In this document: one piece after another, positions 9,820 to 53,062 of the stretch
How positions within the stretch are numbered: position 1 is the stretch's first letter
Layout of the letters: each line of letters begins with the position of its first letter
Source of the DNA: Pirellulales bacterium
GTDB taxonomy: Bacteria; Planctomycetota; Planctomycetia; Pirellulales; PLA5
Reading direction: 5' to 3'
NCBI GenBank assembly: GCA_040901705.1
Contig: JBBDYI010000374.1
Span: 1-61,337, forward strand
Length of the DNA: 61,337 nucleotides
Notes under the pieces: generated by a model
Database searches by the model: none
What the model saw: the letters and a program-made list of their open reading frames with translations, nothing else
What the model was told of the DNA's origin: nothing
Program-made: the position numbers and the translations under genes

Positions 9820-10157
9820 GGGTGGATTTCTCTCGATCGAGCATACAAGAGGCCAAGGCCGTTATTAGGCCACGAACGAACGGCTGGTGCAAGAGAACGA
9901 TGGACTCGGCACTCGCAGCGCGGGGCATTCTCGCATCGTTTCTCACCGCGCCGCGACACGACGCCATGAGCCACGCGGGAGAAACAACGCATCCGCACCC
10001 TCGCGTAGTCGCCCGCACTCGCCACATTCGCAAGCCGAGGCCATCGGCCATAGCCAGCAGAACGTCAGTAAAATCGCTGGAGTCGATCATCCGGGCAACG
10101 TGCGGCCGCAATGTTGATTCCCTGGAGTTGTCCTGGAATCTATAATCGTTGATTAAT

Positions 10158-10718
10158 ATGACCGACGTTACGCGGATCTTGAGCGAAGTCGAACACGGCG
10201 ACTCAGCGGCCGCCGAAAAGCTGCTTCCGTTGGTTTACAACGAACTTCGCCGCCTCGCCTCCGCCCGACTTGCGAACGAGAATCCCGGCCAGACGCTCCA
10301 GGCGACGGCCTTGGTTCACGAGGCGTACGTTCGCCTGGTGGACGTCGATAAAGCCCAGCATTGGAATTCACGCGGGCACTTCTTCGCAGCCGCTGCCGAG
10401 GCCATGCGGCGGATACTCGTGGAAAGTGCGCGCCGAAAACGACGGGACAAACACGGCGGACAACTACAGCGCGTGGAACTCGACGAGATCGTTCTGGCAA
10501 CCACGACTTCAGACGATCAGCTGCTGGAAATCGACGAAGCGCTGGATGCTCTGGCCGAAGACGATCCCCAGGCCGCGGAATTGATAAAGCTGCGATTCTT
10601 CGCGGGGTTTTCGCTCTCCGAAGCCGCGCAGATCGTCGGTTTGTCTCGCACAAGTGCATATGCCCACTGGGCTTACGCTCGGGCGTGGCTGCGATGTCTG
10701 ATCGAAGGCGAGTCGTAG
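10158..10718 (+). CDS. ECF-type RNA polymerase sigma factor of the kinase-associated (TIGR02999/ECF43-like) type
   Basis: MTDVTRILSEVEHGDSAAAEKLLPLVYNELRRLA...LVHEAYVRL (region 2) and ELIKLRFFAGFSLSEAAQIVGLSRTSAYAHWAYARAWL (region 4). The track ORF opens at TTG 10149; ATG 10158 is the likelier start. No anti-sigma-like ORF is adjacent. Confidence 0.9.
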   Translation: MTDVTRILSEVEHGDSAAAEKLLPLVYNELRRLASARLANENPGQTLQATALVHEAYVRLVDVDKAQHWNSRGHFFAAAAEAMRRILVESARRKRRDKHGGQLQRVELDEIVLATTTSDDQLLEIDEALDALAEDDPQAAELIKLRFFAGFSLSEAAQIVGLSRTSAYAHWAYARAWLRCLIEGES

Positions 10719-10859
10719 AGGCTATCTACAAAGAATTGCCGAGGATCCTGACTGTAGGAGGCGAATACTTTCGCCGAGGCACTTGCTTTGGGGCTCCGTC
10801 GGCTAAAGTATTCGCCTCCTACAGTGTGAAAAACAAGCCCATTCTTTGCGGATAGCCTC
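10717..10859. repeat. nested palindromic element between the sigma and kinase genes
   Basis: Outer arms 10717-10736 (agaggctatctacaaagaat) and 10840-10859 (attctttgcggatagcctct) pair at 18/20. Inner arms 10751-10770 and 10804-10823 are a perfect 20-bp inverted repeat (ctgtaggaggcgaatacttt / aaagtattcgcctcctacag). The left outer arm contains the TAG stop of the sigma gene. Confidence 0.85.
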
Positions 10860-10930
10860 TTAGGCCGTCGACGGCCCGAGAATCTGCACGTTCTTCCCGG
10901 ACGAATTCGCGCCCAACGTCGCACTACGTT

Positions 10931-13900
10931 ATGGAGCCATCGGGCAAGGTGATTGGCATGACAACAAAACTACGCACGGCCAAAGACATTTTCGTCGAAC
11001 TCGTGGCCAACGTCGTTCCCGATCAGTGGGATGCGACCTTGCAAACCGCGTGCGACGGCGATATCGACCTACGCGATCGCGTCCAGGCTTTGCTCCGCGC
11101 GCACGCCAAGCCTGGAGATTTCTTGGCGCGGCCCGCCGTTGCCGCCGATGTCGCGCAGGGTGGAGACGATATCGTCGCCGAGTCGCCCGGTACGCTCATC
11201 GGTCCTTATCGACTCTTGGAGCAAATCGGCGAAGGCGGGTTTGGCGTGGTGTTCCTGGCGGAACAGGAGCGACCAGTCCGGCGAACCGTGGCGCTGAAGG
11301 TCGTCAAGCCAGGCATGGATACGCGGGAGGTGATCGCGCGTTTCGAGGCCGAGCGGCAAGCCTTGGCGCTAATGGACCATCCGAACATCGCCCGCGTCAT
11401 CGATGCCGGGGCGTCCGATCGGGGGCGTCCCTACTTCGTGATGGAGTTGGTCGACGGGGTCGCCGTCACGGAATTCTGCGATCGGAACCGGCTGTCCGTC
11501 GACGAGCGGCTGCGGCTGTTCGCAACGATCTGCCATGCCGTGCAGCACGCCCATCAGAAGGGAGTCATTCACCGCGACATCAAGCCGAGCAACGTGCTGG
11601 TTAAGCTGCACGACGGCGCGCCCGTCGCCAAGGTAATCGACTTCGGCGTGGCCAAGGCGACCGGGCAGCAACTGACCGACCGGACATCGCTGACCCGCTT
11701 CACTCAAATCGTCGGCACGCCGCTCTATATGTCGCCGGAACAGGCTCAGGTCAGCGGCGGCGATATCGACACGCGCAGCGACGTCTACTCGCTGGGAGTG
11801 ATGCTATACGAACTGCTGACGGGCACAACGCCCTTCGACAAAGAGCAGTTGCATCGGGCCGGGCACGACGAAGTACGGCGGATCATCCGCGAGGAAGAAC
11901 CGCCCAAGCCGAGCACGCGAATCAGCACGCTTGGCGCGGCGGCTACGACGGTTTCGACCGAGCGCCAGAGCGACCCGCGTAAGCTCGGTCAACTCGTCCG
12001 AGGCGAGTTGGACTGGATCGTAATGAAAGCGTTGGAGAAGGACCGCGATCGCCGCTATGAGTCGGCCGGCTCATTGGCCCGCGATGTCGAGCGTTATCTA
12101 CGCGACGAGCCGGTACAAGCTTGCCCGCCGTCGACGTGGTATCGTTTTCGCAAATTTGCCCGGCGGAACAAGCGAGTTCTGGCTGCGACGACGTTGTTGG
12201 GATTGGCGCTGCTGGTCGCCGTGGGAGCTGTCGCGGGAAGCTTGGGGTGGGTGGCCCACGACCGTTCGTCGCGGCGACTTATCGCCGAGTTCGAGGCGAA
12301 CCGAGCGCTCGATGAAGTCACCGCCTCGCAGGAACGAGAGAATTGGTCAGCCGCGCTCGCCGCGGTCAAGCGAGCGGAGGAACTGCTGGCCGGAGTCAGC
12401 GACGGCGAGCTACTCAAACGCGCCGGCGAGTCGCGTCGCGAAATTGAGATGGTGCTGCGCCTCGATAGCATCATGCTCGACTTGCAAACGCTGCCCGGTC
12501 AACCGACGCTCTTCGATTTCGCCCAGCCGGATGCCGATTACGCCAAGGCCTTCAGCGAATTTGGCATTCCGGTCGGCGCACTTTCGCCAGCCGATGCCGC
12601 CGAACGAATTCGCCGGTGCGGCGTTCGCCAGCAGTTGGCCGTGGCGCTCGATGCCTGGGCGGAAGCACGGCGCTACGCGGATACGACGCGAGGAGACACG
12701 GTCGGTCCCACATGGCGGCAGTTGCTTGCCATTGCGTCGCTTGTCGATCCAGATCCATCGCGCATTGGTGTTCGCCAGGCGTTGTCGAATCGATCGCGCG
12801 ACAACCTCGAAGACGTTGCTCGCGAGTTGCCGGTAGCCGGTGCGTCGCCCGTGACGCTCGGATTGTTGGGCCGCGCCTTGAGCGATTACGGCGCACACGA
12901 GCAAGCTGAGGTGCTGCTGCGGCGAGCGCAGCAACGGCACCCGAATTCGTTTTGGTTGAATTTCGACCTGGCGATGGTCCTGATCCGACAAAAACCGCCT
13001 CGGACAGACGATGGCATCCGCTTTCTGTCGGTCGCCTTGGCGTTGCGGCCGGATTGCCCTGCCGTGTACGCGCATCTCGTCGCCGCGTTAACCCGGCGCG
13101 GCGCCACGGCCGAAGCCGACGCAATTTGTCAACAGGCCGCCGTTTTTCACGCCGAGTCGGCGGCAATGCACCTGATGCGTGCAGGCGTTCTCGTCGACAG
13201 CGGCCAGCCGGAGCAGGCAATCGCCGCCTGCAAGGAAGCGATCCGTTTGCAACCGAACGACGCTTGGACGCACAACGGCCTTGGGGACATCTTGCGACGT
13301 CAGGGCAAATTGGATGCGTCCCTCGATTGTGTCCGCAAGGCAATCGAAATCGACGCGACGCAGGCGGCGTTCCACACGAACCTTGGCCGTGCTCTGGCCG
13401 GCAAGAATGAACTGAGTGAGGCCATCGCCGCTTTCACCGAGGCACTGCGCCTCAACCCGAATTACGTTCTCGCGCACAATCATCTCGGCCGAGCACTGGC
13501 GGCCCAAGGAGACAACGACGCAGCCATCGCGTGCTACCGCAGGGCGATCGCCATCGATCCGACGCATGCTTACCTTTACAAGAATCTCGGCGTCGCCCTG
13601 GGCGCACAGGGTAAATTCGACGAGGCCATCGCCGCTCACCGCGAATCTATCCGGCTCGATCCGACTGACGCGATCAATCACCAAATCCTCGGCGCGCTTC
13701 TGAGCGGAAATGGTCGGCAGCGAGAGGCACGCGACGCTTTTCGTAAGTCGATTGAGCTCGCCGCCGATAGCCCGACCGCCAACAACGCGCTGGCGTGGTT
13801 TCTTGCTGCCTGTCCCGATTCTGCGCTTCGCGACCCGGTTCAAGCGGTGGAACTGGCGAAGAAAGCCATCGCACTTGCGCCCGATGATGGCAATCTGTGG

Positions 13901-14188
13901 AATACGCTGGGCGTGGCGCAATATCGGGCTGGCGACTGGCCGGCAGCGATTACGGCCCTCGAAAAGTCGATCGCGCTTCGCGGCGGCGGCGACAGTTTTG
14001 ATTGGCTGTTTCTGGCGATGGCTCACTGGCGGCAGGCAGAAAAGGACCGAGCGCGTGAATACTACGAAAAGGCCGTCGAATGGATGGAAAAGCACCCGTC
14101 GCGCGACGAACAATTAAACCGCTTCCGCGCCGAAGCGGAAGCGTTGTTCGGTGGCGAATCTCAGAACACAGAAACCAAATCGCCGTAA
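10931..14188 (+). CDS. transmembrane Ser/Thr protein kinase with C-terminal TPR repeat sensor region
   Basis: Hanks kinase motifs are present: GEGGFGVV, VALK, HRDIKPSNVL, DFGVAKA, GTPLYMSPEQ. There is one TM helix, followed by many TPR-like units (AIAAFTEALRLNPNY, AIACYRRAIAIDPTHA, AIAAHRESIRLDPTDA and others). An alternative ATG start at 10958 is possible. Confidence 0.9.
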   Translation: MEPSGKVIGMTTKLRTAKDIFVELVANVVPDQWDATLQTACDGDIDLRDRVQALLRAHAKPGDFLARPAVAADVAQGGDDIVAESPGTLIGPYRLLEQIGEGGFGVVFLAEQERPVRRTVALKVVKPGMDTREVIARFEAERQALALMDHPNIARVIDAGASDRGRPYFVMELVDGVAVTEFCDRNRLSVDERLRLFATICHAVQHAHQKGVIHRDIKPSNVLVKLHDGAPVAKVIDFGVAKATGQQLTDRTSLTRFTQIVGTPLYMSPEQAQVSGGDIDTRSDVYSLGVMLYELLTGTTPFDKEQLHRAGHDEVRRIIREEEPPKPSTRISTLGAAATTVSTERQSDPRKLGQLVRGELDWIVMKALEKDRDRRYESAGSLARDVERYLRDEPVQACPPSTWYRFRKFARRNKRVLAATTLLGLALLVAVGAVAGSLGWVAHDRSSRRLIAEFEANRALDEVTASQERENWSAALAAVKRAEELLAGVSDGELLKRAGESRREIEMVLRLDSIMLDLQTLPGQPTLFDFAQPDADYAKAFSEFGIPVGALSPADAAERIRRCGVRQQLAVALDAWAEARRYADTTRGDTVGPTWRQLLAIASLVDPDPSRIGVRQALSNRSRDNLEDVARELPVAGASPVTLGLLGRALSDYGAHEQAEVLLRRAQQRHPNSFWLNFDLAMVLIRQKPPRTDDGIRFLSVALALRPDCPAVYAHLVAALTRRGATAEADAICQQAAVFHAESAAMHLMRAGVLVDSGQPEQAIAACKEAIRLQPNDAWTHNGLGDILRRQGKLDASLDCVRKAIEIDATQAAFHTNLGRALAGKNELSEAIAAFTEALRLNPNYVLAHNHLGRALAAQGDNDAAIACYRRAIAIDPTHAYLYKNLGVALGAQGKFDEAIAAHRESIRLDPTDAINHQILGALLSGNGRQREARDAFRKSIELAADSPTANNALAWFLAACPDSALRDPVQAVELAKKAIALAPDDGNLWNTLGVAQYRAGDWPAAITALEKSIALRGGGDSFDWLFLAMAHWRQAEKDRAREYYEKAVEWMEKHPSRDEQLNRFRAEAEALFGGESQNTETKSP
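12175..12258 (+). other. single transmembrane helix of the kinase
   Basis: RVLAATTLLGLALLVAVGAVAGSLGWVAH, flanked by basic residues on the N-terminal side. This places the TPR region on the non-cytoplasmic side (inference). Confidence 0.6.
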
Positions 14189-14222
14189 CGCCAGTCGCGT
14201 CGGCGCCTCGCAGAGTTTTGCC

Positions 14223-17200
14223 ATGATGCGTCGATTCAACGCCAGCAAACGAAAACACCAACTCCGATCGACGCGACGTTACGACGCCAGCCACCAACTC
14301 TCGGTGCTGCGATTCGAGGCACTGGAGGATCGGCGATTATTGTTCAGCCCCTACACGCACATTTCGGCCGCCGAACAGGTGCTGGCCGATCTGACCGACG
14401 ATTCGCAGCTCACGATTGCCGGGCAAGACTATGACGTGCGCCCCGAAGTCATCGCGGCGCTTCGCGACTATCCGGCGTATTATCGCGCCGGCGTGGTCGG
14501 GCCGGATAGTTATCCGGACGTGCCGCTGGGAGCGGGCATCATTCACGCTGAAAACGCCGGCTTGTGGGCGCGGCACGTGTTTCGCGAAGCCTGGGCGGCT
14601 CAAACCGATCCCGGTTACGACGCCGCCGAGCGATCGCAAATCCTCGCCTGGTCGTACGGATTCTTGACGCACATGGCCGGCGACGTGTGGGCGCACACGC
14701 TGGTCAACGATCTGGCCGGAGGCGTCTGGCCGGCGATTGGCGATATTCCGAGCGAGGCCCAAAATGCCGCGATCGTGCTCCGGCATCTGGCGATCGAGGG
14801 TTACATCGCCGACTACACGCCTGGCTACGACGGGAACCCGACGCGCAACCCCGGCGATACGAGCGACACGACAACGCCGGAACTCGTTTTCGCGGTGCCG
14901 CACGAGTTCGTCTACAAAACGCTGATCGAGCCGGATAACGGCTTGCATACCGAAACGCGCGGCGTGCTAATCGACCGATTCTTGAGCCTGCGTGCGACTT
15001 TGGAAGGCTTGAAGACCCCAGCCAACCGTGACCTTCGCAGCGAAGCGAGCACGGCGGTGTCCGATGTCCTCGGCAGTCTCGACGCGGCCGAAGCGGCCTT
15101 CGACGCAGCGGCCGGCCCGTGCTTCGATACATTCGACCTGACCGCATGCGTGCAATCGCTCGGCAATCTTGCCAAGTGGGGCGCGGTAAATTCCGCCGCC
15201 GCGTTCGAAAGCTTCCGCCTGTCGACGCTCGACGACTTGGCAACCGCTCTGTTCGATTCCTATTTGAACGAGTGGATCGGCAACATCGACGCGGGATTGC
15301 GGCACTGGACCGAGTTCAGCCTGGCCGTCAGCAATGCGTTGCTGAATCCGCAAACCCGCCGCGACGCTCAAGACTACCTTTGCGCGCCGCGCGGTGGCGA
15401 GTTCGATCCGGCCCGCATCGCGTGTGAAGATGATGTCGGCTTTCTAGACGTGATTTCCTATGCGACGACCGATTTCGTAAACGATTACTTGCTCGGCATG
15501 CTCGGTGCGCCCGACTTCTTGGGCGGGTTGCGGGAGAAGTTGCAGGACTTCGCTCACACGCTCGACTTGGCGTTAGGCCCCGCATTCAATCCAATGCGAT
15601 TGACGCAAGACGCGCTGCGGGACTTGAGCCAAACCATCTCGCACACGGCTTTAGAGGCCACATTTGGCGTCGATTTGAATTTGCTCGAGAGTTTCCTCAA
15701 GACGCCGTCGGCGATGCTCGACGTGACCGAGATCGACCTGGGACCAACGTTCGGAGTTACGCCGTTGTTCCAGCCGGGCGATCACGCGCGGTTGGACCAA
15801 CTGTTGGGAATCGTGGGCACCGACCATCACGAGACCACCGATCCCAAAGTTCTCAAGGCCGACGAGGCGTTCGATCCAACCAGCCCGACGGTGTTCGCGG
15901 CCTACGCCAACACCGTGACGATGTCGAAGCTGCTGCTACTCGACGGAGCGACGCTCGACGACGTGTTGGGTGACATCATCGGCGAGCCGGGCTTCGCGTT
16001 CTATCAGCTTGTCGACACCGACTTGCCGGTCCGTGGCAACGTAATGCTCACGCCGCTGCCGGGCGTCGGCGCAACCGAATTGTTGTCGTCCGAATTGATG
16101 GACTCGCGATACCGCAACCAACAGTGGCTGCACTCGATCGACCACGACCACGCCTGGCGGGCCGACGGGCTGCCGGCGTTCGCCAACAGCAACGCGGCGG
16201 GCGCGCACAATCGGCCGCTTGACGACGGCTTTCCCAACAGCGGCGGCCTGGGCAATTTCCCGTTGTGGGAGAGCGCGACGCTGCGGCCGGCGTTTCGCGT
16301 GCTGTTCCGCGATTGGGAGAATCCGCAAGGCTTTACGGACTTCCGCGATGACTACGGCGACGCGCCGACGATAAATCCCGTCGAGCGTTTGGACGACCCC
16401 GGCGTGGCGGCGGCGCTCGAAGCCGGACTGGCCGAGACGATCGAGTGGTTCGGCTCGCTCGACGGAGCGGCTTCTCCACCGGCAAGTTCGAATTCGCCGC
16501 CCGTTCCCGCGGCGTCGCCGGACGCATTGGCGTTACTCGCACAGCCGTTGCCGCTCGTCGGCATGTCCGTTGGGCAGGCCCTCGATATCGAAGGCCTGTT
16601 GCGGCAGCTACTGCTCGAACCGGTCGAAGCGTACTTCGGCGGCGACGCCACGCCAACGGCGGCGGAACTGGTGGCCGTGCTGTCGCAACTTTCGACGACG
16701 GTCGGCGACGTCCAAGCAGACGTTGCGCCTCTTGGCGCGGGCGGCGGACTGGCGCAAACCGCGCTCGGCGAGGAACTCGCATTCAGCATACGGCTGACGG
16801 CTAGCCGCACGCGCACCGACGTGCCGCTGTTGCTGCCCAGCCAAGACGTATGGGGAATTACGCTCGGCGCGGCGGCGACCGTCGACTTGACCGCGACATT
16901 GGCGATTGGTCTGACCTTCGGTTACGACCTCACGCCCGGCGTATCGGCCGCCGATGCGTTCTTCATCTACATCCACGAGTTGACTCCTGGCGTCACGGTT
17001 CGAACGGACGACCTGAATTTCTCGGCAAAGGTCGGCTTCTTGGACATCGGTATCGAGGATGGCATCGTAAACCTTGACGCCGAGTTGCCTTTCGAGGTCG
17101 TCGATCCAGGCCCCGATCTGTTGGGGCGGATTTCGTTGGCGGACTTGCAAGCCACCAGCCCAGCCATGCTGTTCGACGTGGCCGCGCCCACGGCGACGTT

Positions 17201-29200: not shown

Positions 29201-32200
29201 CGACCGGTTGACCCTCTCGAACAACGACATCTACGGCTACGTGGGAGTGCATCTGGAATCCACCAACGACCAGGCGGTGATCGTGAATAACTTCGTCCAC
29301 GACCTGGCCAGCGGAGCGAATTACATCTTTGTGCGGGGCAACGACACCACGATCGTCGGAAATCGGATCGGCCGCACCGTTGCGACCGACGGCACGGGAT
29401 TGAGCCTGCACGGCGAGCGAAACAAGGCCCAAGCCAACGAAATATGGCACCTGAACTACGGGATCAACAACTCGGGCGGCGGCAGCGGCGAGGCCAACCG
29501 CAACGTGATCGTGGGGAACCTGATCCACGACAACCTGTACGCCGGCATCCAGAACGGCGGCAACGCGCATGTGACCGGCAACACGATATACGGCCAGCGA
29601 GAGTCGGTGGGCGACATGGGAATCCACAGCTTTGGAATCGGCCTCATCGAGAACAACGAGGTGTACGACAACGCGATCGGCATCGTGGTCTATGGCGGGC
29701 TGACCCGCAACAATCGCGTGTACCGCAACAGCCAGGTCGGCATCATGGCCACCCAATCGGCGATGGTGCAGGGAAACACGGTGTACTCGAACCCGCTAGG
29801 CCTCCAAGTCGGCTGCTGCGGCGTGTACAACTCCGCCCAGGTCACGAACAACCTCGTGTATGCCAATACGACGGCGGGTATTCTCGTGGGGCGAACGTAC
29901 GCGGCCAACGGCGCGCTCGTCGCTAACAACACGGTCTATCAGCCTCAAGGCGACGCCTTGGTCTTCGAGGCGGACACATTATTGGTTAGCGTGAAGAACA
30001 ACATCCTGGTCTCTGGCGGCGGGTATGTGATCAACGGCGGAGGCTACAACGTGCTCGGCCTCGCGAGCGATTACAACCTGCTATTCGCATCCGGGTCGGC
30101 CAAGTTGGCGCGTTGGCAAAATCGTGATTTCACCAGTCGCGCAGATTGGTTCTATGAACTGGGATTCGACACCCACAGCCAGACCGTCGATCCGCAATTC
30201 GTCGACATCGACGGTCTGGATAATCAACTTGGTTTTGTGAGTGGCGTTGACTATGGCTTGGATGACAATTTCAGCTTGCTGACGACTTCGCCTGGCGTCG
30301 ACGCGGGAAATCCGGCGGATGCCTTCGCGTTGGAATCCAGCCCCAACGGCGGCCAGATCAACTCGGGGCACCACGGCAACACGCCGCAGGCGACCAACAG
30401 CCCGCTGCAATTGGTGCAGATCCTTTCGCCCGACGGACTGGAGAAGGTCGAACGCGGACAATCGGTCGCCATTCAATGGTCGTTTCACGGGCTCCCTGCA
30501 AACGGCGATCAGGACGCCTTATTGGCGCACGCGCCGCTGGTCTATTATCGATTCGACGAATCTAGCGGCACTGTGGCCGTGGATTCTTCGGCCAATGCCC
30601 TGCACGCGACGTACACGAATGGTGTGACGCTGGGAACCACTGGCGGACTGAGCGATGCCACGAATCGTGCCGCCCGATTCGACGGCCAGAACGATTACGT
30701 GGCCGTGCCGGCAACGAATCTCTTCGATACCGCGCAACTTTCAGTCGAGGCTTGGGTCAACCCCGATCCCGCGACCGCGGATTTCACGCCCGTGCTGCTC
30801 AAGACCAGCTCGGATGCGTGGGATGACGGCTGGGGATTGTTTTGGAACGGCGCGGGAAGCCTGCGGTTCTTTGTCAATCACTGGTACGACTCGGCGTCGG
30901 CCGCCGTCGACGTCGCCGTGCCGACGAACGCCTGGTCGCACGTGGCCGCGACTTACGACGGGGCGATGGTCCGAATTTATCTCAACGGAACGCTGGCCGC
31001 CGCCAAAGCGTATACGTCGCCAATCCGCCACGGCAGCCGACCGTTGTCGATCGGGCAGCGGGAATGCTGCAGTCCCCGCTACTGGAAGGGCGGGCTGGAC
31101 GAAGTCGCCGTATACGGCGTTGCGCTGTCGGCCGTCGCGGTTCAAGCACACTATTTGCGACAGAGTTATGGCACGGCACGCATCGAACTGTTCGGCGCGA
31201 ACGATCCGACGCCCGTGCTGACCATTGCCACGACCACGCCAAACAGCAACAGGTACGATTGGACGGTTCCTGCGAATCTCGCAGAGGGAGAGTATCGGAT
31301 CCGAGTCACCGCCAATTCCGGACTACAGCCCGAGGACACGTCGGATGCGTCGTTCCTGATCGCCAACAGCGGCGCGGACTATTACGTCAACGACGGCGCG
31401 ACGACCGGTGACGCATTTACGACGGCTCTGGGCGACAACGCCAACAGCGGCAAGAGTCCGTCGTCGCCGATGGCCAGCCTGTCGGCGTTGCTCGCAGCCT
31501 ATGACCTGGATTCGGGCGACGTGGTCCACGTCGATGCGGGTACGTACGACCTAGTCAAGAATGTCGTCATCACCAGTCAAGACAGCGGCGTGCGGATCGA
31601 AGGACCAACAACGGCTGCGGCGATTCTCAACCGCGGCGCGGTGGCCAGCAGCAATCACGTGTTCGAGTTAGTCAACGCCGACGACGTGACGCTGGACCAC
31701 TTGTCGCTGACGGGCGGCTACCACGCGGTGTACGCTGCTTCCGGTTCCGACAGCGACCGGTTGACCCTCTCGAACAACGACATCTACGGCTACGTGGGAG
31801 TGCATCTGGAATCCACCAACGACCAGGCGGTGATCGTGAATAACTTCGTCCACGACCTGGCCAGCGGAGCGAATTACATCTTTGTGCGGGGCAACGACAC
31901 CACGATCGTCGGAAATCGGATCGGCCGCACCGTTGCGACCGACGGCACGGGATTGAGCCTGCACGGCGAGCGAAACAAGGCCCAAGCCAACGAAATATGG
32001 CACCTGAACTACGGGATCAACAACTCGGGCGGCGGCAGCGGCGAGGCCAACCGCAACGTGATCGTGGGGAACCTGATCCACGACAACCTGTACGCCGGCA
32101 TCCAGAACGGCGGCAACGCGCATGTGACCGGCAACACGATATACGGCCAGCGAGAGTCGGTGGGCGACATGGGAATCCACAGCTTTGGAATCGGCCTCAT

Positions 32201-34433
32201 CGAGAACAACGAGGTGTACGACAACGCGATCGGCATCGTGGTCTATGGCGGGCTGACCCGCAACAATCGCGTGTACCGCAACAGCCAGGTCGGCATCATG
32301 GCCACCCAATCGGCGATGGTGCAGGGAAACACGGTGTACTCGAACCCGCTAGGCCTCCAAGTCGGCTGCTGCGGCGTGTACAACTCCGCCCAGGTCACCA
32401 ACAACCTCGTTTACGCCAATACGGAGTACGGCATTGTTGTTGGACGCACCTACGATGCCAACGGCGCGCTGATCGTCAACAACACGGTCTACCAATCAGT
32501 TGGCGACGCAATTCGCGTTGAGACTGGTTCAAACAATTTGACGATCAAGAACAACATTCTCGCGTTCGGCGCGGGATACGGGCTTAACTTTCTGACGACC
32601 AACCACACCAACCGGGCGTGGGACTATAACCAGTTCGACCGTTTGACGCAGACGCAAGCGAGCGTTGCGTTTTGGGGAGGCGAGGCGCGGGCGACGCTCG
32701 CGGATTGGCAAGTCGCCGCGGCGCAAGACGTCAATTCTCTCGCCGCGTCGGCTGGTTTTGTCGATATCAACGGCGCCGACGACGTGCTCGCATTCTCGGC
32801 CGGCAGCGGCTACGACGGCGGCCGCGACGACAATTTTCACCTTGCCGCCGGATCGCTGGCCATCGACCGGGGCGATGCAAACGCTGCACCGCTCACCGAC
32901 CGCAATGGCCAGGGACGCGCCGACGATCCCGGTTCGCCAAATCTGGGTAATCCGGTCGGCTCGTTCGTCGATCTAGGAGCCTTCGAGTTCCATGGATCGA
33001 GCATCGACGTCGATCCGCCGGTCATCGTGGGTACGCAGCCAGCGGCGATTGCCGCCGGAGGGCGGATTGCATTGCTTGTTGACGTGACGCTCCTGTTGAG
33101 TGAGCCTCTCAACGCGAACGACGCCGCCGCGACGTCGAACTTCGAATTGCGGGCCAGCGGCATCAACGGCCTGTTCGGCGACGAAGATGACATCGTTTAC
33201 GTACTGACGCCCGAATACGGAATCGGCACGACGGCGGTAATCCTGCATCCGGAAATCGGCAGTTTGCCAGACGGCGACTATCGCATCACCGTTTCTCCGA
33301 CCGGGAGCCTACGCGACGAATCTGGATTGGCGCTCGACGGCGATGGCGATGGCGCGCCGGGCGGAGCGTGGATGCGTGTTTTCACCGTCGGCTTCACGAT
33401 CGGCGATTTCGACGGCGACGATGACGTCGATGCCGCGGACATCGATGCTCTGTTTGCCGCCATTGCGATCGGCGCCGTCGATCCTCGCTACGATCTCGAC
33501 GGTGATGGCCGCGTCGATGCTGCGGACGTAGGCGAACTTGTTGTCGGCATTCTCAATACACGGCCGGGCGACGCAAATCTCGACGGCCGCGTCGATCGCG
33601 CCGACGTCGCGCTGTTGGCGTCGCGGTTCGGCCGCGTCGGCGTTCCGCGCTGGTCCGACGGCGACTTCGACGGCGACGGCATGACGGGTCTCGTCGATCT
33701 CGGGTTGTTGCAACGAAACCTGCTCGTGTCGCAGAGCACCTCGATGCCGGGCGACTTCGACGGTGACCAAAATGTGGACGCGGACGACATCGATCGACTC
33801 TTCGCGGCAATTGCCGGTGGCGCGACGGCTGAAGCGTTTGACGTGAACCACGACGGAAACATCGACTACGGCGACGTCGTCTATGTGGTGGAAAACATAC
33901 TTCACACGCGAATTGGCGATGTCGATCTGGATGGTCGAGTCGATGAGGCGGACATTGCGATCGTCGCCACGAACTTCGGCCAATCGAGCGAACGGCGGTG
34001 GTCTTTGGGCGACATCGACGGCGACAGTCGCGTATCGCTGGCTGACCTGGCAAGCCTGCAACGGCGGCTTGGACAAGGTTCGACGGCGTCGCCGATCATA
34101 GCTCCGGCGGCACGCGCGACGATCGCCGCCGTTTTCCGCAACGCCGCTGCGAAACAAGTCGACCAGGCCATACTCCTTGCCGTGGCGCATCGCAGGATGA
34201 CGGTCGTTTCACCCAAGAATTCGGTACTCGCGGCGCGGACCGGTCCGTTGCCCGCGGATCGGCGTCCGAAAGTCGCTTTGTCGGTACGAATTGTGAATGG
34301 GCCGACCGAAGTGAACTTGCGTGCGACTCGACATCGACGCGCCGGGCCGGTCGACGAGGAGTATGTCACAATGATCGATACGGCGGTCGAACACGTTTCC
34401 CGTGAACGACGCTTGCGGCGCATCATCGCGTAA
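14223..34433 (+). CDS. giant (~6,736 aa) secreted multidomain protein: LE-R-LL leader, zinc phospholipase-C-like head, ~2,200-aa unassigned region, PPC domain, five parallel beta-helix modules, two LamG domains, Ig-like segment, eight dockerin-like loops, basic tail
   Basis: Single uninterrupted 20.2-kb reading frame. The track opens it at ATG 14151, inside the kinase gene. ATG 14223 (MMRRFNASKRK...) is the first start after the kinase stop. Domain evidence is given in the sub-features. Confidence 0.9.
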   Translation: MMRRFNASKRKHQLRSTRRYDASHQLSVLRFEALEDRRLLFSPYTHISAAEQVLADLTDDSQLTIAGQDYDVRPEVIAALRDYPAYYRAGVVGPDSYPDVPLGAGIIHAENAGLWARHVFREAWAAQTDPGYDAAERSQILAWSYGFLTHMAGDVWAHTLVNDLAGGVWPAIGDIPSEAQNAAIVLRHLAIEGYIADYTPGYDGNPTRNPGDTSDTTTPELVFAVPHEFVYKTLIEPDNGLHTETRGVLIDRFLSLRATLEGLKTPANRDLRSEASTAVSDVLGSLDAAEAAFDAAAGPCFDTFDLTACVQSLGNLAKWGAVNSAAAFESFRLSTLDDLATALFDSYLNEWIGNIDAGLRHWTEFSLAVSNALLNPQTRRDAQDYLCAPRGGEFDPARIACEDDVGFLDVISYATTDFVNDYLLGMLGAPDFLGGLREKLQDFAHTLDLALGPAFNPMRLTQDALRDLSQTISHTALEATFGVDLNLLESFLKTPSAMLDVTEIDLGPTFGVTPLFQPGDHARLDQLLGIVGTDHHETTDPKVLKADEAFDPTSPTVFAAYANTVTMSKLLLLDGATLDDVLGDIIGEPGFAFYQLVDTDLPVRGNVMLTPLPGVGATELLSSELMDSRYRNQQWLHSIDHDHAWRADGLPAFANSNAAGAHNRPLDDGFPNSGGLGNFPLWESATLRPAFRVLFRDWENPQGFTDFRDDYGDAPTINPVERLDDPGVAAALEAGLAETIEWFGSLDGAASPPASSNSPPVPAASPDALALLAQPLPLVGMSVGQALDIEGLLRQLLLEPVEAYFGGDATPTAAELVAVLSQLSTTVGDVQADVAPLGAGGGLAQTALGEELAFSIRLTASRTRTDVPLLLPSQDVWGITLGAAATVDLTATLAIGLTFGYDLTPGVSAADAFFIYIHELTPGVTVRTDDLNFSAKVGFLDIGIEDGIVNLDAELPFEVVDPGPDLLGRISLADLQATSPAMLFDVAAPTATFYANLPVTGGLGGFSLSPFYSTRPSIEVEDDDSFDATPPQTRVENFDELLNFNALSPQTVVAALEQLAGWLDNFSQSAVMATPIPLTGGTTLGDVVAWGETFAARIVSPLKSLTSTPLFDTAEELANRLAEALGLDIAAIDADYNCFTDELTYKLNLSDVLQPIDVPIDFDLELGSVGLLSTSSTLRVTGSADIELTLGFKLSPLVAVVTAAGTAPSDGVLSSDAHFALTVGDGGPMPIVVPRDDANTSVADLVADINAAIDATCLSGRVTASHDNGTLRLAARVIDSAPSFHLEATAGDSAITDLHFAATNAATASTLDRLFVRDPRLTASLHMAADDVDALARFGFIGIEVVNGSATADASIDVSLTDPGTVDPDGDISITELWTALSDVSTLVPSPEVSGSAHVVLPIRLNPNFLGAEHPADPRITVDWPDITNAGTLTLNFNEDMQELANFEYVSQLDVIDALASAAEYLASLEEFSFLGEKLPLVNRSVSDILGYAAEFTRQVQSVRDDPGATLQELERRLEVALGLVPDSPLVNLSFDGTALRIELVAAAAFDESVAIDLDLAALSAAAGGVPGLENVSRLVDLSGSGVLSLAASATANIQLGIDVADPSDPRSFLYDTTELVVEVRATGTDLNFDAPLGPLGVYIRSGVAVLDGDGIIGTTAPARFSVSLVDPNGDGRIDFAELASLNPAIVDVDLTGQVRATLPVYFPSQTTWLGDIDLRITSLSDIPGTIELTAPPISGQFGLVNLLDNLGVVVIGLDSVLARMQDALDGVVFAARLPLIGRDLQKSAKFIDRLREEAVQPLADLLTDTPPVDAVRQGLFDILGPSGLNLLDKDFHDELSDNVPDAAANLDDVVLEVSMGGNQIQFNVRLKRAMELVDAPIAFDVGLPALGLEVDGDVSLRLGYELTLGFGVNIAQGFYFDTSPQNELLVELEATIPGMTATGHLGFLRVDVEDDPTMPSRLTGSFAIDLMDPIDNPLDPDDDDQLSILDLASVGELSDVVNARFSAMADVNLRLATSFVTDARFPSISADFHLDWTFLNANPSGNPAALGNRPHVVFSNITLPIAEFFDHFAGPILGQIKDLIEPIQPLIKFLTDPLPVISDLPGIDDVSILDIIAVLPPINGIDITQDQVEFFEAAARLIGLIDKIPENFADLQIALGSFEIGGQGGTGDLRRILGSVSDDDLDHVQEMDTAPQLQQDHDVGDFFDEAADIDGGVSFPILTDPSQVFELLLGGDATLFKYQLPELRAELTFKREWQPFPPVPLFGTFRGVLGATANLGFGYDTSGLRRYRESGDWRDVFGGFFIDDHATYDSRGEPIKDDPEATIYGSVTVGVQLGTGIAGGIEGGLFGTVNIDLMDPIPDGAVHFDELVASLDEGLLCTFAVSGEVRAKILAYLEVAGERTSEKKLGESGPILSFDLSPDQCFSSRFESNNVIDTAADIGVAPGIHLADLSLMPAGDTDWYRFDLLRPDSVTIVAKGDVKLEATNANGSLLGRGTDEGGKTRLTLQNLAAGTYYVHVYGNAVGNYDLSIDAATGTSHSGLLGPQGTPTRVFYVNDPTVTDPTVASFYSLEPGDDANDGLSPRTPKATVQSVLATYDLGENDLVLIDSGAYGSGAITLGVADSGAMFAGAPEGSVFGSGSRWRLVGADDVVIDALTFEGGGGPAIEIDYARTMPADESNDNVLRRIVFRDVGTAIRIDRGSGNLVERNRIDGAAALGIDAVSPTALTIRDNEFFDTPTAIRLDRAPGGVVQANTIFGATATAIHTIDATGTIIRTNVIEDAATGILIVGGDGTTVDDNAILATNTGVLAQNAADLTVSGNVLTAVQTGVRLEDVQSGALINNVVTATGLYGMWLRGGGAWTIRGNVVEGAAEGVLISTTSGQSLDLNARNNLVTASSTGFRVADAGVSGRLTANEFHDSGTGLIVTASGVEVDDNEFRGNQTGLRLSGSAATVHDNDMHHNAIGVHVTSGVANIYGNSIHDNTVGVRSDATFGPASWSMADPNDVFRNATGIEALGGATIQFNRLHHNVIGVRVAGAAHVHHNVAYRNTDAGILVSAVTGATVESNTIYAPAGDAVRLDGPTTNLVLRNNVLWAESGFALASPTDNHAGLVSDFNNLYVSGSGKLVLWKKEINDLLNWQVETDFDMHSIGYTTIDPGRDNPRFVDLANDDYHLLDAVSTSIDAGDRLAAFNAEPVPNGGRIDLGAYGNTSEAAMSPASSRLEIDYPNYYTDWTTDEGRFIRWAGYNVAGNVHIELYEEGVGKIGDVAVVSASAGPYLWSPGDNGLAGDPTRRYRLRISSVNDPAVFIFSRETFSVPPETAVFYVNDALTPQDEYATAAGNNRSTGRTPADPKPSLLAVLKSYDLDAGDTVYVDAGEYRHLADAVLSGDLAIGNDEGMTVTGPGDSARVARLVQFSDRPSQAAIDVNNADFVTISHLTLVGAPTGLWVRNGATDFRAVFVTTNGHVLDGLRIDTGSSAASLASIIAIDNGRYGINTQGPLGELVDSTIYGNRNTGVLLSASGSPLVANNLIHSNRGDGITIPGAEGARIEANRIYGNLGQGLLLSASGLLTTIGHDDLSLGRGNIVYDNGQNGIYATGAVRVVGNTVYGHSANNQIGIYGAKEITSNVVFGNDIGIHSTDTVSTNRVYQNRTTGIVTGASGRVSGNVVYSNGVGIQIGCCGLYNAAELTNNLVYANATIGIRAYPGNGIKLINNTVYQPFGNALVFEGDTTAFAMRNNIFSVAVGYAINAGSFNLPQLASDYNNFFVTGTGQVGVWQGIARATLAQWRSASFTDGNSLAQNPLFIDPDGGDNLIGYSSVLADGRDDDFHLQGLYGSFHGGSSAPVVATAPGLPVAMPPMESLDAAQSPLIDVGAASDSFAAEPLPNGGFVNLGTYGNTPQASKSPPTYVRVLSPDGGEAWPVEQSFAIRWRSNDPLAGYALAFDGMDDYVAIAEPTDGSLDLGTSATLEAWVKFAALPNNSLATILSKDQGGGQQNKWIFGYARNYGNIANATFFHINSPAGGAVFLTSNPWTPDIGRWYHLAVVRSGNQFDFYRDGVLDGTATTAFAVPQVAYPVEIGRAEGFAYFNGTLDDVRIWNTSRQPAEIQAAMTEGVTGGEAGLVAAWDFQQGVGNIAIDRTPHGHDGTLGGGIATRRPAWVTRTQAVTVDIDLLQAGEQASVLSIADDTPNDGEFVWTVPLTLEPAADYAIRVTRTDNGATDASNAAFSISPPVNHYYVNDATVDAGDWTTASGNDANDGLTPGSPKASVRAILETYDLGPTDTVLVDAGLYLLTTNLTITAADSGVTIVGYHDAAFPDRRAVLNRGATAASNHVFELVNADDVTLDHLSLTGGYYAVYAVSGSDSDRLTLSNNDISGYAGVRLELANDGAVIVGNFVHDLASGAYYLYVHGFDSTVVGNRIGRNGAAADGTGVNLGGERNTIQGNEIWNLNYGITNGGGGSGAANRNVIVGNLIHDNLYVGIQDGGNTLITGNTVYGQRGPGDVGIFGYGVGLIENNEVYDNATGLQLQGGTARNNRVYGNNQIGIVTGASAVITGNTVYSNPLGIQVGCCGLYNAAQVTNNLVYANTTAGILIGRSYAANGVLIGNNTVYQLQGDALVFEGDTSLVSVKNNVLVSGGYVINGASYNLLGLTSDYNVLNATGAAKLARWQNRDFTSRVDWFYELGLDAHSQTVDPQFVDIDGPDNQLGYVSGVDYGLDDDFSLLTTSPGVDAGNPADSFVLEPNPNGGRINIGHQGNTPQATNSPLQTVQVLSPNGLEKFETNQTVAIQWRSAGLPVEATVAIDVSIDDGMSWTPLAAGLPGNGTYAFTPTVATLGNLALVRVRADTPLAPQDTSDTAFLIANSGADYYVNDGATTGDAFTTALGDNANSGKSPSSPMASLSALLAAYDLDSGDVVHVDAGTYDLVKNVVITSQDSGVRIEGPTTAAAILNRGAVASSNHVFELVNADDVTLDHLSLTGGYHAVYAASGSDSDRLTLSNNDIYGYVGVHLESTNDQAVIVNNFVHDLASGANYIFVRGNDTTIVGNRIGRTVATDGTGLSLHGERNKAQANEIWHLNYGINNSGGGSGEANRNVIVGNLIHDNLYAGIQNGGNAHVTGNTIYGQRESVGDMGIHSFGIGLIENNEVYDNAIGIVVYGGLTRNNRVYRNSQVGIMATQSAMVQGNTVYSNPLGLQVGCCGVYNSAQVTNNLVYANTTAGILVGRTYAANGALVANNTVYQPQGDALVFEADTLLVSVKNNILVSGGGYVINGGGYNVLGLASDYNLLFASGSAKLARWQNRDFTSRADWFYELGFDTHSQTVDPQFVDIDGLDNQLGFVSGVDYGLDDNFSLLTTSPGVDAGNPADAFALESSPNGGQINSGHHGNTPQATNSPLQLVQILSPDGLEKVERGQSVAIQWSFHGLPANGDQDALLAHAPLVYYRFDESSGTVAVDSSANALHATYTNGVTLGTTGGLSDATNRAARFDGQNDYVAVPATNLFDTAQLSVEAWVNPDPATADFTPVLLKTSSDAWDDGWGLFWNGAGSLRFFVNHWYDSASAAVDVAVPTNAWSHVAATYDGAMVRIYLNGTLAAAKAYTSPIRHGSRPLSIGQRECCSPRYWKGGLDEVAVYGVALSAVAVQAHYLRQSYGTARIELFGANDPTPVLTIATTTPNSNRYDWTVPANLAEGEYRIRVTANSGLQPEDTSDASFLIANSGADYYVNDGATTGDAFTTALGDNANSGKSPSSPMASLSALLAAYDLDSGDVVHVDAGTYDLVKNVVITSQDSGVRIEGPTTAAAILNRGAVASSNHVFELVNADDVTLDHLSLTGGYHAVYAASGSDSDRLTLSNNDIYGYVGVHLESTNDQAVIVNNFVHDLASGANYIFVRGNDTTIVGNRIGRTVATDGTGLSLHGERNKAQANEIWHLNYGINNSGGGSGEANRNVIVGNLIHDNLYAGIQNGGNAHVTGNTIYGQRESVGDMGIHSFGIGLIENNEVYDNAIGIVVYGGLTRNNRVYRNSQVGIMATQSAMVQGNTVYSNPLGLQVGCCGVYNSAQVTNNLVYANTEYGIVVGRTYDANGALIVNNTVYQSVGDAIRVETGSNNLTIKNNILAFGAGYGLNFLTTNHTNRAWDYNQFDRLTQTQASVAFWGGEARATLADWQVAAAQDVNSLAASAGFVDINGADDVLAFSAGSGYDGGRDDNFHLAAGSLAIDRGDANAAPLTDRNGQGRADDPGSPNLGNPVGSFVDLGAFEFHGSSIDVDPPVIVGTQPAAIAAGGRIALLVDVTLLLSEPLNANDAAATSNFELRASGINGLFGDEDDIVYVLTPEYGIGTTAVILHPEIGSLPDGDYRITVSPTGSLRDESGLALDGDGDGAPGGAWMRVFTVGFTIGDFDGDDDVDAADIDALFAAIAIGAVDPRYDLDGDGRVDAADVGELVVGILNTRPGDANLDGRVDRADVALLASRFGRVGVPRWSDGDFDGDGMTGLVDLGLLQRNLLVSQSTSMPGDFDGDQNVDADDIDRLFAAIAGGATAEAFDVNHDGNIDYGDVVYVVENILHTRIGDVDLDGRVDEADIAIVATNFGQSSERRWSLGDIDGDSRVSLADLASLQRRLGQGSTASPIIAPAARATIAAVFRNAAAKQVDQAILLAVAHRRMTVVSPKNSVLAARTGPLPADRRPKVALSVRIVNGPTEVNLRATRHRRAGPVDEEYVTMIDTAVEHVSRERRLRRIIA
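14313..14342 (+). other. N-terminal FEALEDRRLL motif (LE-R-LL type leader)
   Basis: Preceded by a ~30-aa Arg/Lys-rich N-terminus with no hydrophobic h-region. Confidence 0.6.
14352..14820 (+). other. zinc-dependent phospholipase C-like domain
   Basis: HISAAEQVLADL...YYRAGVVGPDSYPD...GFLTHMAGDVWAHTLVND...LRHLAIEGYIAD. The G.L.H...D...H pattern is typical of the Zn-dependent PLC family. Recognised by eye only. Confidence 0.5.
21598..21828 (+). other. bacterial pre-peptidase C-terminal (PPC)-like domain
   Basis: AGDTDWYRFDLLRPDSVTIVAKGDVKLEATNANGSLLG...LQNLAAGTYYVHVYGNAVGNYDLSIDA. Confidence 0.6.
21880..23870 (+). other. parallel beta-helix module A
   Basis: Opens with VFYVNDPTV...GDDANDGLSPRTPKATVQSVLATYDLGENDLVLIDSGAYG. 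Many N/G-rich PbH1-like turns follow (NNVVT, GNVVEG, HDNDMHHNAIGVHV...). It closes with DDYHLL...DAGD...PNGGRIDLGAYGNT. Confidence 0.75.
24189..25945 (+). other. parallel beta-helix module B
   Basis: VFYVNDALTPQDEYATAAGNNRSTGRTPADPKPSLLAVLKSYDLDAGDTVYVDAGEY ... GCCGLYNAAELTNNLVYAN ... DDDFHLQ ... PNGGFVNLGTYGNT. Confidence 0.75.
26042..26690 (+). other. LamG/concanavalin-A-like lectin domain 1
   Basis: LAFDGMDDYVAIAEP...SATLEAWVKFAALP...RWYHLAVVRSGNQFDFYRDG...FNGTLDDVRIWNTSR. Confidence 0.7.
26922..28515 (+). other. parallel beta-helix module C
   Basis: HYYVNDATVDAGDWTTASGNDANDGLTPGSPKASVRAILETYDLGPTDTVLVDAGLY ... GCCGLYNAAQVTNNLVYAN ... PNGGRINIGHQGNT. Strongly similar to modules D and E, with long runs of identical residues in the translation. 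Confidence 0.8.
28798..29845 (+). repeat. perfect 1,048-bp direct repeat, copy 1 (inside the giant ORF)
   Basis: Identity with 31351-32398 at a fixed offset of 2,553 nt. I spot-checked it at eight positions across the repeat. It is corroborated by identical shadow ORFs in the track (29115-29756 = 31668-32309; 29456-29683 = 32009-32236). The first mismatches are at 28797/31350 and 29846/32399. Confidence 0.9.
28818..30400 (+). other. parallel beta-helix module D
   Basis: GADYYVNDGATTGDAFTTALGDNANSGKSPSSPMASLSALLAAYDLDSGDVVHVDAGTY ... GCCGVYNSAQVTNNLVYAN ... PNGGQINSGHHGNT. Confidence 0.8.
30535..31155 (+). other. LamG/concanavalin-A-like lectin domain 2
   Basis: LVYYRFDESSGTVAVDSS...ARFDGQNDYVAVPA...LSVEAWVNPD...AWSHVAATYDGAMVRIYLNG...GGLDEVAVYGVAL. 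Confidence 0.7.
31351..32398 (+). repeat. perfect 1,048-bp direct repeat, copy 2
   Basis: See 28798-29845. The offset of 2,553 nt equals 851 codons, so the two copies are in the same reading frame. Confidence 0.9.
31371..32995 (+). other. parallel beta-helix module E (mosaic: first ~343 aa identical to module D, remainder different)
   Basis: Identical to D up to ...SAQVTNNLVYANT. It then diverges (EYGIVVGRTYDANGALIVNN...RDDNFHLAAGSLAIDRGD...FVDLGAFEFHG). Confidence 0.8.
33402..34075 (+). other. eight dockerin/EF-hand-like Ca-binding loops in two blocks of four
   Basis: DFDGDDDVDAAD, DLDGDGRVDAAD, DANLDGRVDRAD, DFDGDGMTGLVD, then DFDGDQNVDADD, DVNHDGNIDYGD, DVDLDGRVDEAD, DIDGDSRVSLAD. Confidence 0.75.
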
Positions 34434-34583
34434 CGTCTGGCCGCGGACATGCGCGCAAAACTTCGCCAGCTTCGTTTGACAAACGTGGCAATAAGGGCAC
34501 TTCCGCGCGTGGCCCGGAATGCTCGTCTAACCAGCGGCGACGTCTTTCTCGACAAGTCGTCAGTCACGATCGCACATCGCCCG

Positions 34584-34613
34584 CCTGTCCCCTGTCTCCT
34601 GTCCCCTGCCCCC
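34584..34613 (-). repeat. heptad microsatellite (GGGNCAG)x4 directly abutting the stop codon of the alpha/beta-hydrolase gene
   Basis: The plus strand reads cctgtcc cctgtct cctgtcc cctgccc cc, followed immediately by tta (stop codon TAA of the minus-strand ORF at 34614-34616). Confidence 0.85.
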
Positions 34614-37175: not shown

Positions 37176-37274
37176 CCGCGTACTTTGCGTTAAAAAAACC
37201 AACCAGCCCAAATTTGCGAAAGCGCGCAAGAAGGTCCGGATTGGAAGTGCAGAGGTGCAGGCGCGAAGGAGGGT
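37038..37274. repeat. imperfect nested palindromic region with short tandem units (ctctgcgc cctctgcgc; ggtcgcagag gtttcgcaaa ggtcgcaggg)
   Basis: 37045-37080 (gctggttcgtttttcaacgcggaggtcgcagagg) is an imperfect inverted repeat of 37154-37207 (ctctgcgccctctgcgcgcc...ttgcgttaaaaaaaccaaccagc). 37247-37268 (gtgcagaggtgcaggcgcgaag) is partly complementary to 37154-37172. Confidence 0.55.
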
Positions 37275-37377
37275 GAACATCGGCGATACTCCCGTGAGTG
37301 GCCCGACGACCGGCCGTCGGGCGGTGGAGGAATACCACGATGCTAACCGCGCCGTCGCGGCGGAACAATCGCGATGC

Positions 37378-52901: not shown

Positions 52902-53062
52902 AAAACACGGAGGCACGGAGACACGGAGGGCATGCAAACGATGAGTGATGAGTGGCACTTCCAATCGTAAGGTGGCATCGCCGCTCGTTCATCATTCATC
53001 ACTCATCAATCATCGTTCATCACTTTCCCTTTTTCCTCCGTGTCTCCGTGCCTCCGTGTTTT
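52902..53062. repeat. nested palindromic element between convergent genes
   Basis: Perfect 28-bp arms: aaaacacggaggcacggagacacggagg (52902-52929) and cctccgtgtctccgtgcctccgtgtttt (53035-53062). The arms are built from (CACGGAGR)x3 tandem units. An inner 12-bp inverted repeat is present (gatgagtgatga / tcatcactcatc). The right arm lies inside the last ~19 codons of the 53006-55189 ORF. Confidence 0.9.

Follow-up and report, generated by a model that had tools for sequence, protein, structure and literature searches.

A candidate functional unit of ECF sigma factor, TPR-type Ser/Thr kinase and giant LExRxLL exoprotein in a Pirellulales bacterium

The locus described here raises the question of whether an extracytoplasmic function (ECF) sigma factor gene, a Ser/Thr kinase gene and the giant exoprotein gene that follows them form one functional unit or are neighbors by chance. 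Planctomycetes encode ECF sigma/Ser-Thr kinase pairs by the dozen, along with many giant exoproteins; to our knowledge, essentially nothing has been established about the targets of the former or the regulation and function of the latter. The locus lies on contig JBBDYI010000374.1 of a Pirellulales bacterium, analyzed as a single stretch of 61,337 nucleotides (nt) with a G+C content of about 62%, which we call "the window". Its gene content is of planctomycete type (PF07638, PEP-CTERM and dockerin proteins), and its best matches lie in metagenome-assembled genomes of Planctomycetota. Three plus-strand genes follow one another in series: sigma factor (10158-10718), kinase (10931-14188) and giant (14223-34433). 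An earlier annotation made from the letters alone (the first-pass annotation) had described three co-directional open reading frames (ORFs) here, and the ORF list reproduces its coordinates. Minus-strand genes flank the trio on both sides. The reading we favor, at a probability of roughly 0.6, is that the trio is one functional unit composed of a phospho-activated ECF43-like sigma factor, a cognate Hanks-type kinase with tetratricopeptide repeats (TPRs), and a dedicated exoprotein of the LExRxLL type.

The evidence that carries this reading comes from a survey of 162 loci around related kinases, in which genes were called with a simple longest-ORF caller and tblastn. A TIGR02999-like sigma factor gene lies directly upstream of 83 of the 141 related kinases that have upstream room; sigma-kinase pairing is the rule in this family. 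The same-strand genes downstream often start as the giant does, with Met, a basic stretch of 15-50 amino acids (aa) and the motif LExLE(D/P/S)RxLL. An LExRxLL ORF occupies the first same-strand position downstream in 7/77 loci by a strict definition and 10/77 by a loose one, and the second position in 3/60. Elsewhere the motif is rare, at about 1% of upstream positions and 0/126 on the opposite strand downstream. The association also follows the type of ectodomain: a TPR ectodomain like that of the window kinase was found in seven of ten LExRxLL-associated kinases versus six of 90 others (Fisher p = 1e-5). When the scan was made independent of reading frame, nine of the 13 kinases with a window-like TPR ectodomain had a motif gene on the same strand no more than 4 kb downstream. 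A symmetric control gave 6/9 for the downstream same-strand compartment, and 0/9, 0/9 and 1/9 (1/27) for the other three.

Validation loci were picked only for kinase identity and usable contigs, blind to their neighbors, and all three (L163, L166 and L167) showed the layout. Their partner proteins have 616 aa with the motif LEALECRNLP (L163/L164), 2,464 aa with cadherin-like domains and LEDRTLL (L166), and 999 aa with LEDRTFL (L167/L168). At three other loci the partner gene runs off the contig end, and the proteins have at least 2,719 aa (L017), 2,116 aa (L087) and 1,987 aa (L016). Overall, partner sizes range from about 240 to about 6,700 aa, with the window giant at the top, and domain content is equally varied (beta-helix with Calx-beta, FG-GAP-like, cadherin-like, beta-propeller); the sole feature common to these diverse proteins is the N-terminal motif. 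Because partner sizes vary so widely within a recurrent layout, sequence comparison identifies the window giant as a size-extreme member of a recurrent trio and not a one-off. The first-pass annotation had envisaged a module wired to one giant gene, which the survey does not bear out: the partner class is set by its N-terminal motif, at any size in the range given above. Its proposal that orthologues of the pair might precede similar genes elsewhere did hold at the family level, where relatives of the sigma factor and kinase often precede LExRxLL exoprotein genes, some of them large. The LExRxLL-associated TPR kinases are 37-59% identical to one another, which implies that the arrangement is old and has been kept through deep divergence. 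Since related pairs are so often followed by LExRxLL genes, functional coupling of the sigma/kinase pair to the exoprotein is likely.

Several observations made along the way concern how these loci are organized. Sigma/kinase pairs occur in tandem arrays, with two pairs at L002 and three on the P0105 contig, and the structured element R1 (described below) precedes successive genes; this suggests that the family grew as whole modules were duplicated locally. At other loci (L076 and L006), sigma/kinase pairs are followed by CotH and PEP-CTERM proteins. The contigs of P0229 and P0025, both 83,401 bp long, were considered as one and the same, but they are unrelated and come from different samples.

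Region 2.2 of canonical ECF factors has an acidic patch, DAED/DxxD. The window sigma factor (10158-10718, plus strand; 186 aa from ATG 10158, with TTG 10149 as another possible start) departs from this pattern. It matches TIGR02999 at 198.8 bits (cutoff 126.15) and PF07638 at 1.2e-62 and 211.5 bits (gathering score 21.1), and its region 2.2 reads LQATALVHE, in which Q48 and A51 replace acidic residues and T50 falls at the phospho-site. The published motifs, with which this one was compared as a motif and not through alignment to the EcfP or EcfK sequences, are STTA in EcfP, QATE in EcfK and QTTA in the ECF43 consensus (PMC13147305, PMC8999054). The phospho-acceptor in each of them is the third-position Thr, which supplies the missing negative charge (PMC13147305, PMC8999054), and Thr50 (codon 10305-10307) is for that reason a candidate phosphosite of the window protein. 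A Thr/Ser cluster in the linker between sigma2 and sigma4, TTTS (T115-S118), resembles the extra sites of EcfK. Other kinase-linked ECF groups keep DAED-like charge, according to reviews (PMC8999054), and this favors a provisional assignment as ECF43-like over the planctomycete kinase-linked groups ECF59-62/217. The family models and the QATA motif thus agree with the first-pass annotation, which had placed the pair in the ECF43/TIGR02999 kind. That annotation had also mentioned that a partner kinase phosphorylates its sigma factor directly in one Vibrio pair. Such phosphorylation is now reported for more than one pair: EcfP/PknT of V. parahaemolyticus, a pair from Hyphomonas, and EcfK/PknS of X. 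citri. The sigma/kinase pair itself is of a known kind.

The kinase gene (10931-14188, plus strand) begins 213 nt downstream of the sigma factor gene on the same strand. Pfam, NCBIfam, catalytic motifs and hydropathy identify its product as a Hanks-type Ser/Thr receptor kinase of 1085 aa. An N-terminal extension of about 85 aa, conserved across the kinase family, precedes a Pkinase domain at aa 93-326 (nt 11207-11908), and all Hanks motifs are found (GEGGFGVV, VALK, HRDIKPSN, DFG and SPE). There is one hydrophobic helix, at about aa 415-441 (nt 12173-12253), so that the full catalytic core and single membrane-spanning helix described earlier are both borne out. Beyond the helix the picture was refined: what had been taken for about 450 aa of TPR repeats is a block of about 410 aa (approximately aa 644-1054, nt 12860-14092), separated from the helix by a conserved juxtamembrane ectodomain of about 200 aa that is not TPR. 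The TPR domain is still predicted to face outward, given the need of the kinase domain for ATP. As noted at first reading, no anti-sigma gene accompanies the pair; a Pfam scan gave no zf-HC2, RskA or FecR-like domain in or between the genes. Homologues of the kinase number more than 8,000, mostly TPR-kinases from Planctomycetota. The best match, 64% identical, lies on a 3-kb contig; the others are at most 52% identical, and the best full-length match is about 50% identical.

The giant exoprotein gene (14223-34433, plus strand) encodes 6,736 aa from its ATG, and was characterized by its Pfam domains and N-terminal motif. A basic stretch of 33 aa is followed by LEDRRLL (nt 14322-14342), a helical domain of about 650 aa, about 1,750 aa without a Pfam match, a PPC domain, a modular region, Big_5, dockerin repeats and a basic tail. 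The modules (approximately nt 21900-33002) consist of five or six beta-helices (NosD/Beta_helix) with Kre9/Ig-like and two Laminin_G_3 domains interleaved, and the dockerin repeats span approximately nt 33390-34082 (PF00404 at 46.8 bits, gathering score 22.9, at about aa 6565-6616). The first-pass annotation called this a secreted giant. Its size and exoprotein domains were confirmed, but hydropathy detected no hydrophobic signal-peptide core in aa 1-120, and it is from domain content that we infer secretion. The name LEPR-XLL is descriptive only: the motif and N-terminal architecture agree with it, and the NCBIfam LEPR-XLL model gave no match to aa 1-100 or aa 1-1000 at E<=10, a model that may be too short for the HMMER filters.

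The helical domain (aa ~45-690, nt ~14355-16292, plus strand) is putatively Zn-phospholipase-C-like. Its match to PF00882 is 22.7 bits, under the gathering score of 26.8. It belongs to a widespread family, most members of which stand alone and are about 1,000 aa long (Actinomycetota and others); some homologues carry PF00882 or are named phospholipase C/D, and H..D..H and H..E patterns are conserved in the family. An AlphaFold model of the N-terminal domain (predicted local distance difference test 76, predicted template modeling score 0.83) gave no significant Foldseek match, and there was no sequence match in the PDB. On these sequence features the phospholipase-C identity is tentative. A protein similar to aa ~960-1200 of the giant, P0200, was considered as a related locus and rejected; it is encoded by a stand-alone gene with no sigma factor or kinase nearby. 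The modular region also contains an exact in-frame direct repeat of about 1.04 kb, with copies at 28800-29850 and 31353-32403 (plus strand; offset 2,553 nt). It belongs to a triplicated beta-helix module with spacings of 1,881 and 2,553 nt. Either duplication or conversion created the exact repeat very recently, or the assembly is at fault here, which would bear on module number and the length of the giant.

If the trio is one unit, its promoters and junctions should be informative. A sigma70-type -10-like hexamer, TATAAT, is found at 10141-10146 (plus strand) and ends 11 nt before the sigma ATG. Hexamers of this type occur 5-45 nt ahead of the sigma start in 25 of 85 loci of relatives, compared to 4.4 +- 2.0 in shuffled sequences. 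In a de novo search upstream of sigma genes, sigma70-like -10 words and TTGATT were the only enriched words; neither a consistent -35/-10 spacing nor an ECF-like autoregulatory motif was found there. By its sequence and position TATAAT is a candidate housekeeping promoter that would give a near-leaderless transcript, and such a promoter with a short or absent leader fits the constitutive production of a sigma factor in inactive form. The ECF-type motif suggested earlier as common to the sequences upstream of 10158 and 14223 was not found, nor did the search within the window yield a bipartite motif common to the upstream regions of the sigma factor, the giant and both of the other LExRxLL genes. 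At the kinase-giant junction, the frame of the giant is open from GTG 14151, overlapping the kinase end by 38 nt, and its first ATG is at 14223. The intervening spacer of 34 nt (14189-14222, plus strand) has neither an R1-type leader nor a recognizable promoter; a blank promoter scan in so short a gap is in keeping with the earlier remark that there is little room for an independent promoter.

The junctions of relatives are of a different kind. We define "R1" as a conserved structured element of about 145 nt that lies 0-120 nt past the kinase stop codon in relatives (alignment A3). It forms two helices with 92% pairing and compensatory changes, and its G-U wobbles fit the kinase strand only. 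The segment TCGGTCTGCGCGC is invariant, and the 3' end carries GGAG together with the start codon of the gene that follows, which is often an LExRxLL exoprotein gene. About 32 copies were found, all on the kinase strand (examples are L086:4848-4990, L163:8608-8751, L167:14943-15088 and L002:15462-15603), and no conserved promoter-like flank was detected ahead of R1 among them. R1 has no match in Rfam 15, in which relatives gave only spurious microRNA matches, and the window has no match to any Rfam family. From its sequence R1 looks like a new cis-regulatory RNA, intercistronic or leader. Its placement and the lack of a promoter-like flank suggest that kinase and exoprotein genes are normally one transcript, in which expression of the downstream gene is regulated. 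Searching the window with the R1 covariance model, filters off, yielded nothing above noise (best score 8.8 bits). With no R1 and a junction of just 34 nt, read-through from the kinase gene is the simplest expectation there. Beside these observations we note that in some relatives R1 is directly followed, ahead of the LExRxLL gene, by a gene for a membrane protein of about 170 aa with a single pass (L004:14629-15156 and L154:7950-8459); the two proteins are homologous and share ...RVAWATPG.... Inspection of the window, with no dedicated search, revealed no recognizable counterpart.

The spacer between sigma factor and kinase is also unusual. In a comparison with 65 relatives it measures 218 nt in the window, versus a median of 97 nt, and from the sigma stop codon onward it holds a near-perfect palindrome that roughly doubles its length relative to that median, a long hairpin of 145 nt (10717-10861, plus strand), with a minimum free energy of -97.7 kcal/mol (z -6.7). 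Among the 65 relatives the spacer is a structural outlier (z -10.5 versus a median of -0.6). A perfect inverted repeat of 20 nt inside the palindrome occurs nowhere else in the window, and the idea of a dispersed repeat was discarded when neither the window nor 168 loci yielded a second copy. The palindrome looks like a local insertion, and may be MITE/REP-like (a miniature inverted-repeat transposable element or repetitive extragenic palindrome) or a site at which transcripts are processed or attenuated. Downstream of an LExRxLL gene, at L086:7065-7171, there is a further long perfect hairpin that attracts spurious microRNA-family matches in Rfam; the intergenic regions of these genomes may commonly contain long palindromes.

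Exoprotein genes are abundant across the window. At 1776-8609 (plus strand) an LExRxLL-type protein of 2,277 aa has four LTD domains, CotH, a dockerin and the N-terminal sequence LESRHVL; another, of 727 aa with the motif LERRDLL, is encoded at 53006-55189 (minus strand), and a PEP-CTERM protein at 367-1602 (plus strand). The upstream flank of the trio is a gene with a weak GH5-like match (8767-9819, minus strand), and the downstream, convergent flank is a dienelactone-hydrolase/abhydrolase-like gene of 888 aa (34614-37280, minus strand). A plus-strand ORF of 425 aa (34449-35726), which opens 16 nt past the stop codon of the giant, was considered as a fourth co-directional gene. It overlaps the minus-strand hydrolase gene, has no family matches and is probably a shadow ORF of that gene, which makes the giant the last gene of the trio.

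Under the reading of the trio as one unit, the sigma factor and kinase genes would be transcribed from the housekeeping-type promoter just upstream of 10158. The sigma factor would be inert as made, its region 2.2 being without the acidic DAED residues. A periplasmic or surface cue at the TPR ectodomain would activate the kinase, which would phosphorylate Thr50 and possibly the linker Thr/Ser cluster too, and by analogy with EcfP/PknT and EcfK/PknS the phosphorylated sigma factor would then bind core RNA polymerase. The giant would be expressed within the same transcription unit, boosted by the activated sigma factor, or both; in the window, given the 34-nt gap and the lack of R1, it would most likely be reached by read-through from the kinase gene. 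The conserved linkage implies that the exoprotein is either the output of the module or also its cue. That it might be a cue read by the TPR array is attractive in view of the TPR-specific association and the shared N-terminal peptide.

Other explanations account for part of these data. The three genes might be a co-transcribed operon and nothing more, in which the giant rides a constitutive sigma-kinase transcript, the regulon of the sigma factor lies elsewhere and the linkage reflects shared expression or assembly, for example with the exoprotein as cue. The housekeeping-type -10 hexamer near the sigma start in the window and in 25/85 relatives, the failure to find an ECF-like motif, the short kinase-giant gap and the lack of a promoter-like flank at R1 all agree with this. 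Against it, ECF sigma factors usually control their neighbors, and EcfK/PknS lies inside a type VI secretion system (T6SS) cluster that is under its control (PMC13147305, PMC8999054). Moreover, a constitutive transcript of 24 kb for a protein of 6.7k aa would be costly, and a dedicated regulatory RNA before the exoprotein gene in relatives implies that expression is regulated, not passive. We regard such a bare operon as possible, though not as the account to be preferred. TPR domains characteristically bind short linear peptides, and a further alternative is that the exoprotein is the input: the TPR array would bind the LExRxLL peptide or another part and monitor export or assembly, in a triad analogous to FecA/FecR/FecI. 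The suitability of TPRs for such binding, the specificity of the association for TPR-type ectodomains and the N-terminal motif as the only feature common to diverse partners are all points in its favor. Yet a shared ancestral arrangement among TPR-type kinases, which are related, could produce the same association. We therefore consider the input explanation doubtful. Still more speculative is the idea that the trio belongs to a hitherto undescribed class of self-contained planctomycete surface-signaling triads, in which the LEPR-XLL N-terminal peptide is read by the TPR array and R1 gates the exoprotein in most lineages, the window being an R1-less, size-extreme case with the giant transcriptionally fused to its sensor.

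Finally, with many sigma/kinase pairs and many LExRxLL/dockerin genes in these genomes, the two could have become adjacent by chance, the giant being transcribed independently. Several facts favor adjacency of this kind or otherwise count against a functional unit. Three LExRxLL-type genes lie within the 61 kb of the window, a local density that makes such neighbors more probable, and the window departs from the common layout in lacking the R1 of its relatives. The collections searched offered no orthologous locus for comparison: a close orthologue of the kinase was not found in the protein database, the GTDB species representatives or the JGI metagenomes, which leaves synteny at the family level, and a protein search found no orthologue of the N-terminal 1,200 aa of the giant. 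The survey loci are all centered on kinases, with heuristic ORF calls and without a genome-wide background rate. No ECF-type promoter motif was found upstream of the sigma factor or the giant, and the spacer palindrome could terminate, attenuate or process transcripts. On the other side, the enrichment shows specificity for position, strand and type of ectodomain in loci that have diverged deeply, the validation loci were positive in 3/3 cases, and the 34-nt junction has no recognizable promoter. Judged on these sequence patterns chance adjacency is unlikely, and it is the least probable of the explanations weighed here.

The functional trio that we favor has clear parallels in known systems. 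Like the ECF43 pairs EcfP-PknT (V. parahaemolyticus) and EcfK-PknS (X. citri), the window pair is of the TIGR02999/PF07638 type, lacks DAED, has Thr at the phospho-site, and combines the absence of an anti-sigma gene with an adjacent, co-directional transmembrane Hanks kinase. PknS shares with the window kinase an N-terminal extension and a periplasmic TPR region (PMC13147305), but it has three TPRs whereas the window ectodomain comprises about 200 aa of juxtamembrane sequence and about 410 aa of TPR. Unlike the T6SS cluster or the polymyxin-resistance genes of the known pairs, the neighbor in the window is a single LExRxLL/dockerin exoprotein gene; also, the window pair is planctomycete, and phosphorylation there would be expected by analogy. 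FecI/FecR/FecA and the ECF/anti-sigma/SusC systems of Bacteroidota likewise group the genes of an ECF sigma factor, a transducer spanning the membrane and a dedicated protein of the envelope or surface. In these systems the surface protein can be both the signal source and a regulated product. The transducer of the window is a Ser/Thr kinase that would activate its sigma factor, whereas an anti-sigma sequesters it, and in place of a TonB-dependent transporter the partner is a multidomain exoprotein, either soluble or at the surface; signaling from partner to transducer is hypothetical in the window. The giant itself resembles LEPR-XLL proteins and planctomycete giant dockerin proteins in its basic N-terminus, the LE(D/P)RxLL motif, the lack of a hydrophobic core, a long repetitive body (beta-helix, Ig-like or cadherin-like) and dockerin repeats near the C-terminus; one homologue, P0144, bears the NCBI name LEPR-XLL domain-containing. 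Among such proteins it is a size extreme at 6.7k aa, with an unusual N-terminal helical domain otherwise found in stand-alone proteins of about 1,000 aa.

In the literature searched, not exhaustively, we found no description of the kinase-exoprotein linkage or of R1, and the name LEPR-XLL was met in only two papers; the conserved third partner class and R1 appear to be undescribed. The polar linkage between a kinase subfamily and an exoprotein class would provide cognate sets for study, in which a sigma factor comes with a candidate promoter, a kinase with a candidate ligand and, in relatives, a candidate regulatory RNA is added. The implication is that the paradigm of phospho-activated sigma factors, studied to date in Proteobacteria, would be extended to a setting in which one unit also encodes the product that is regulated or sensed.

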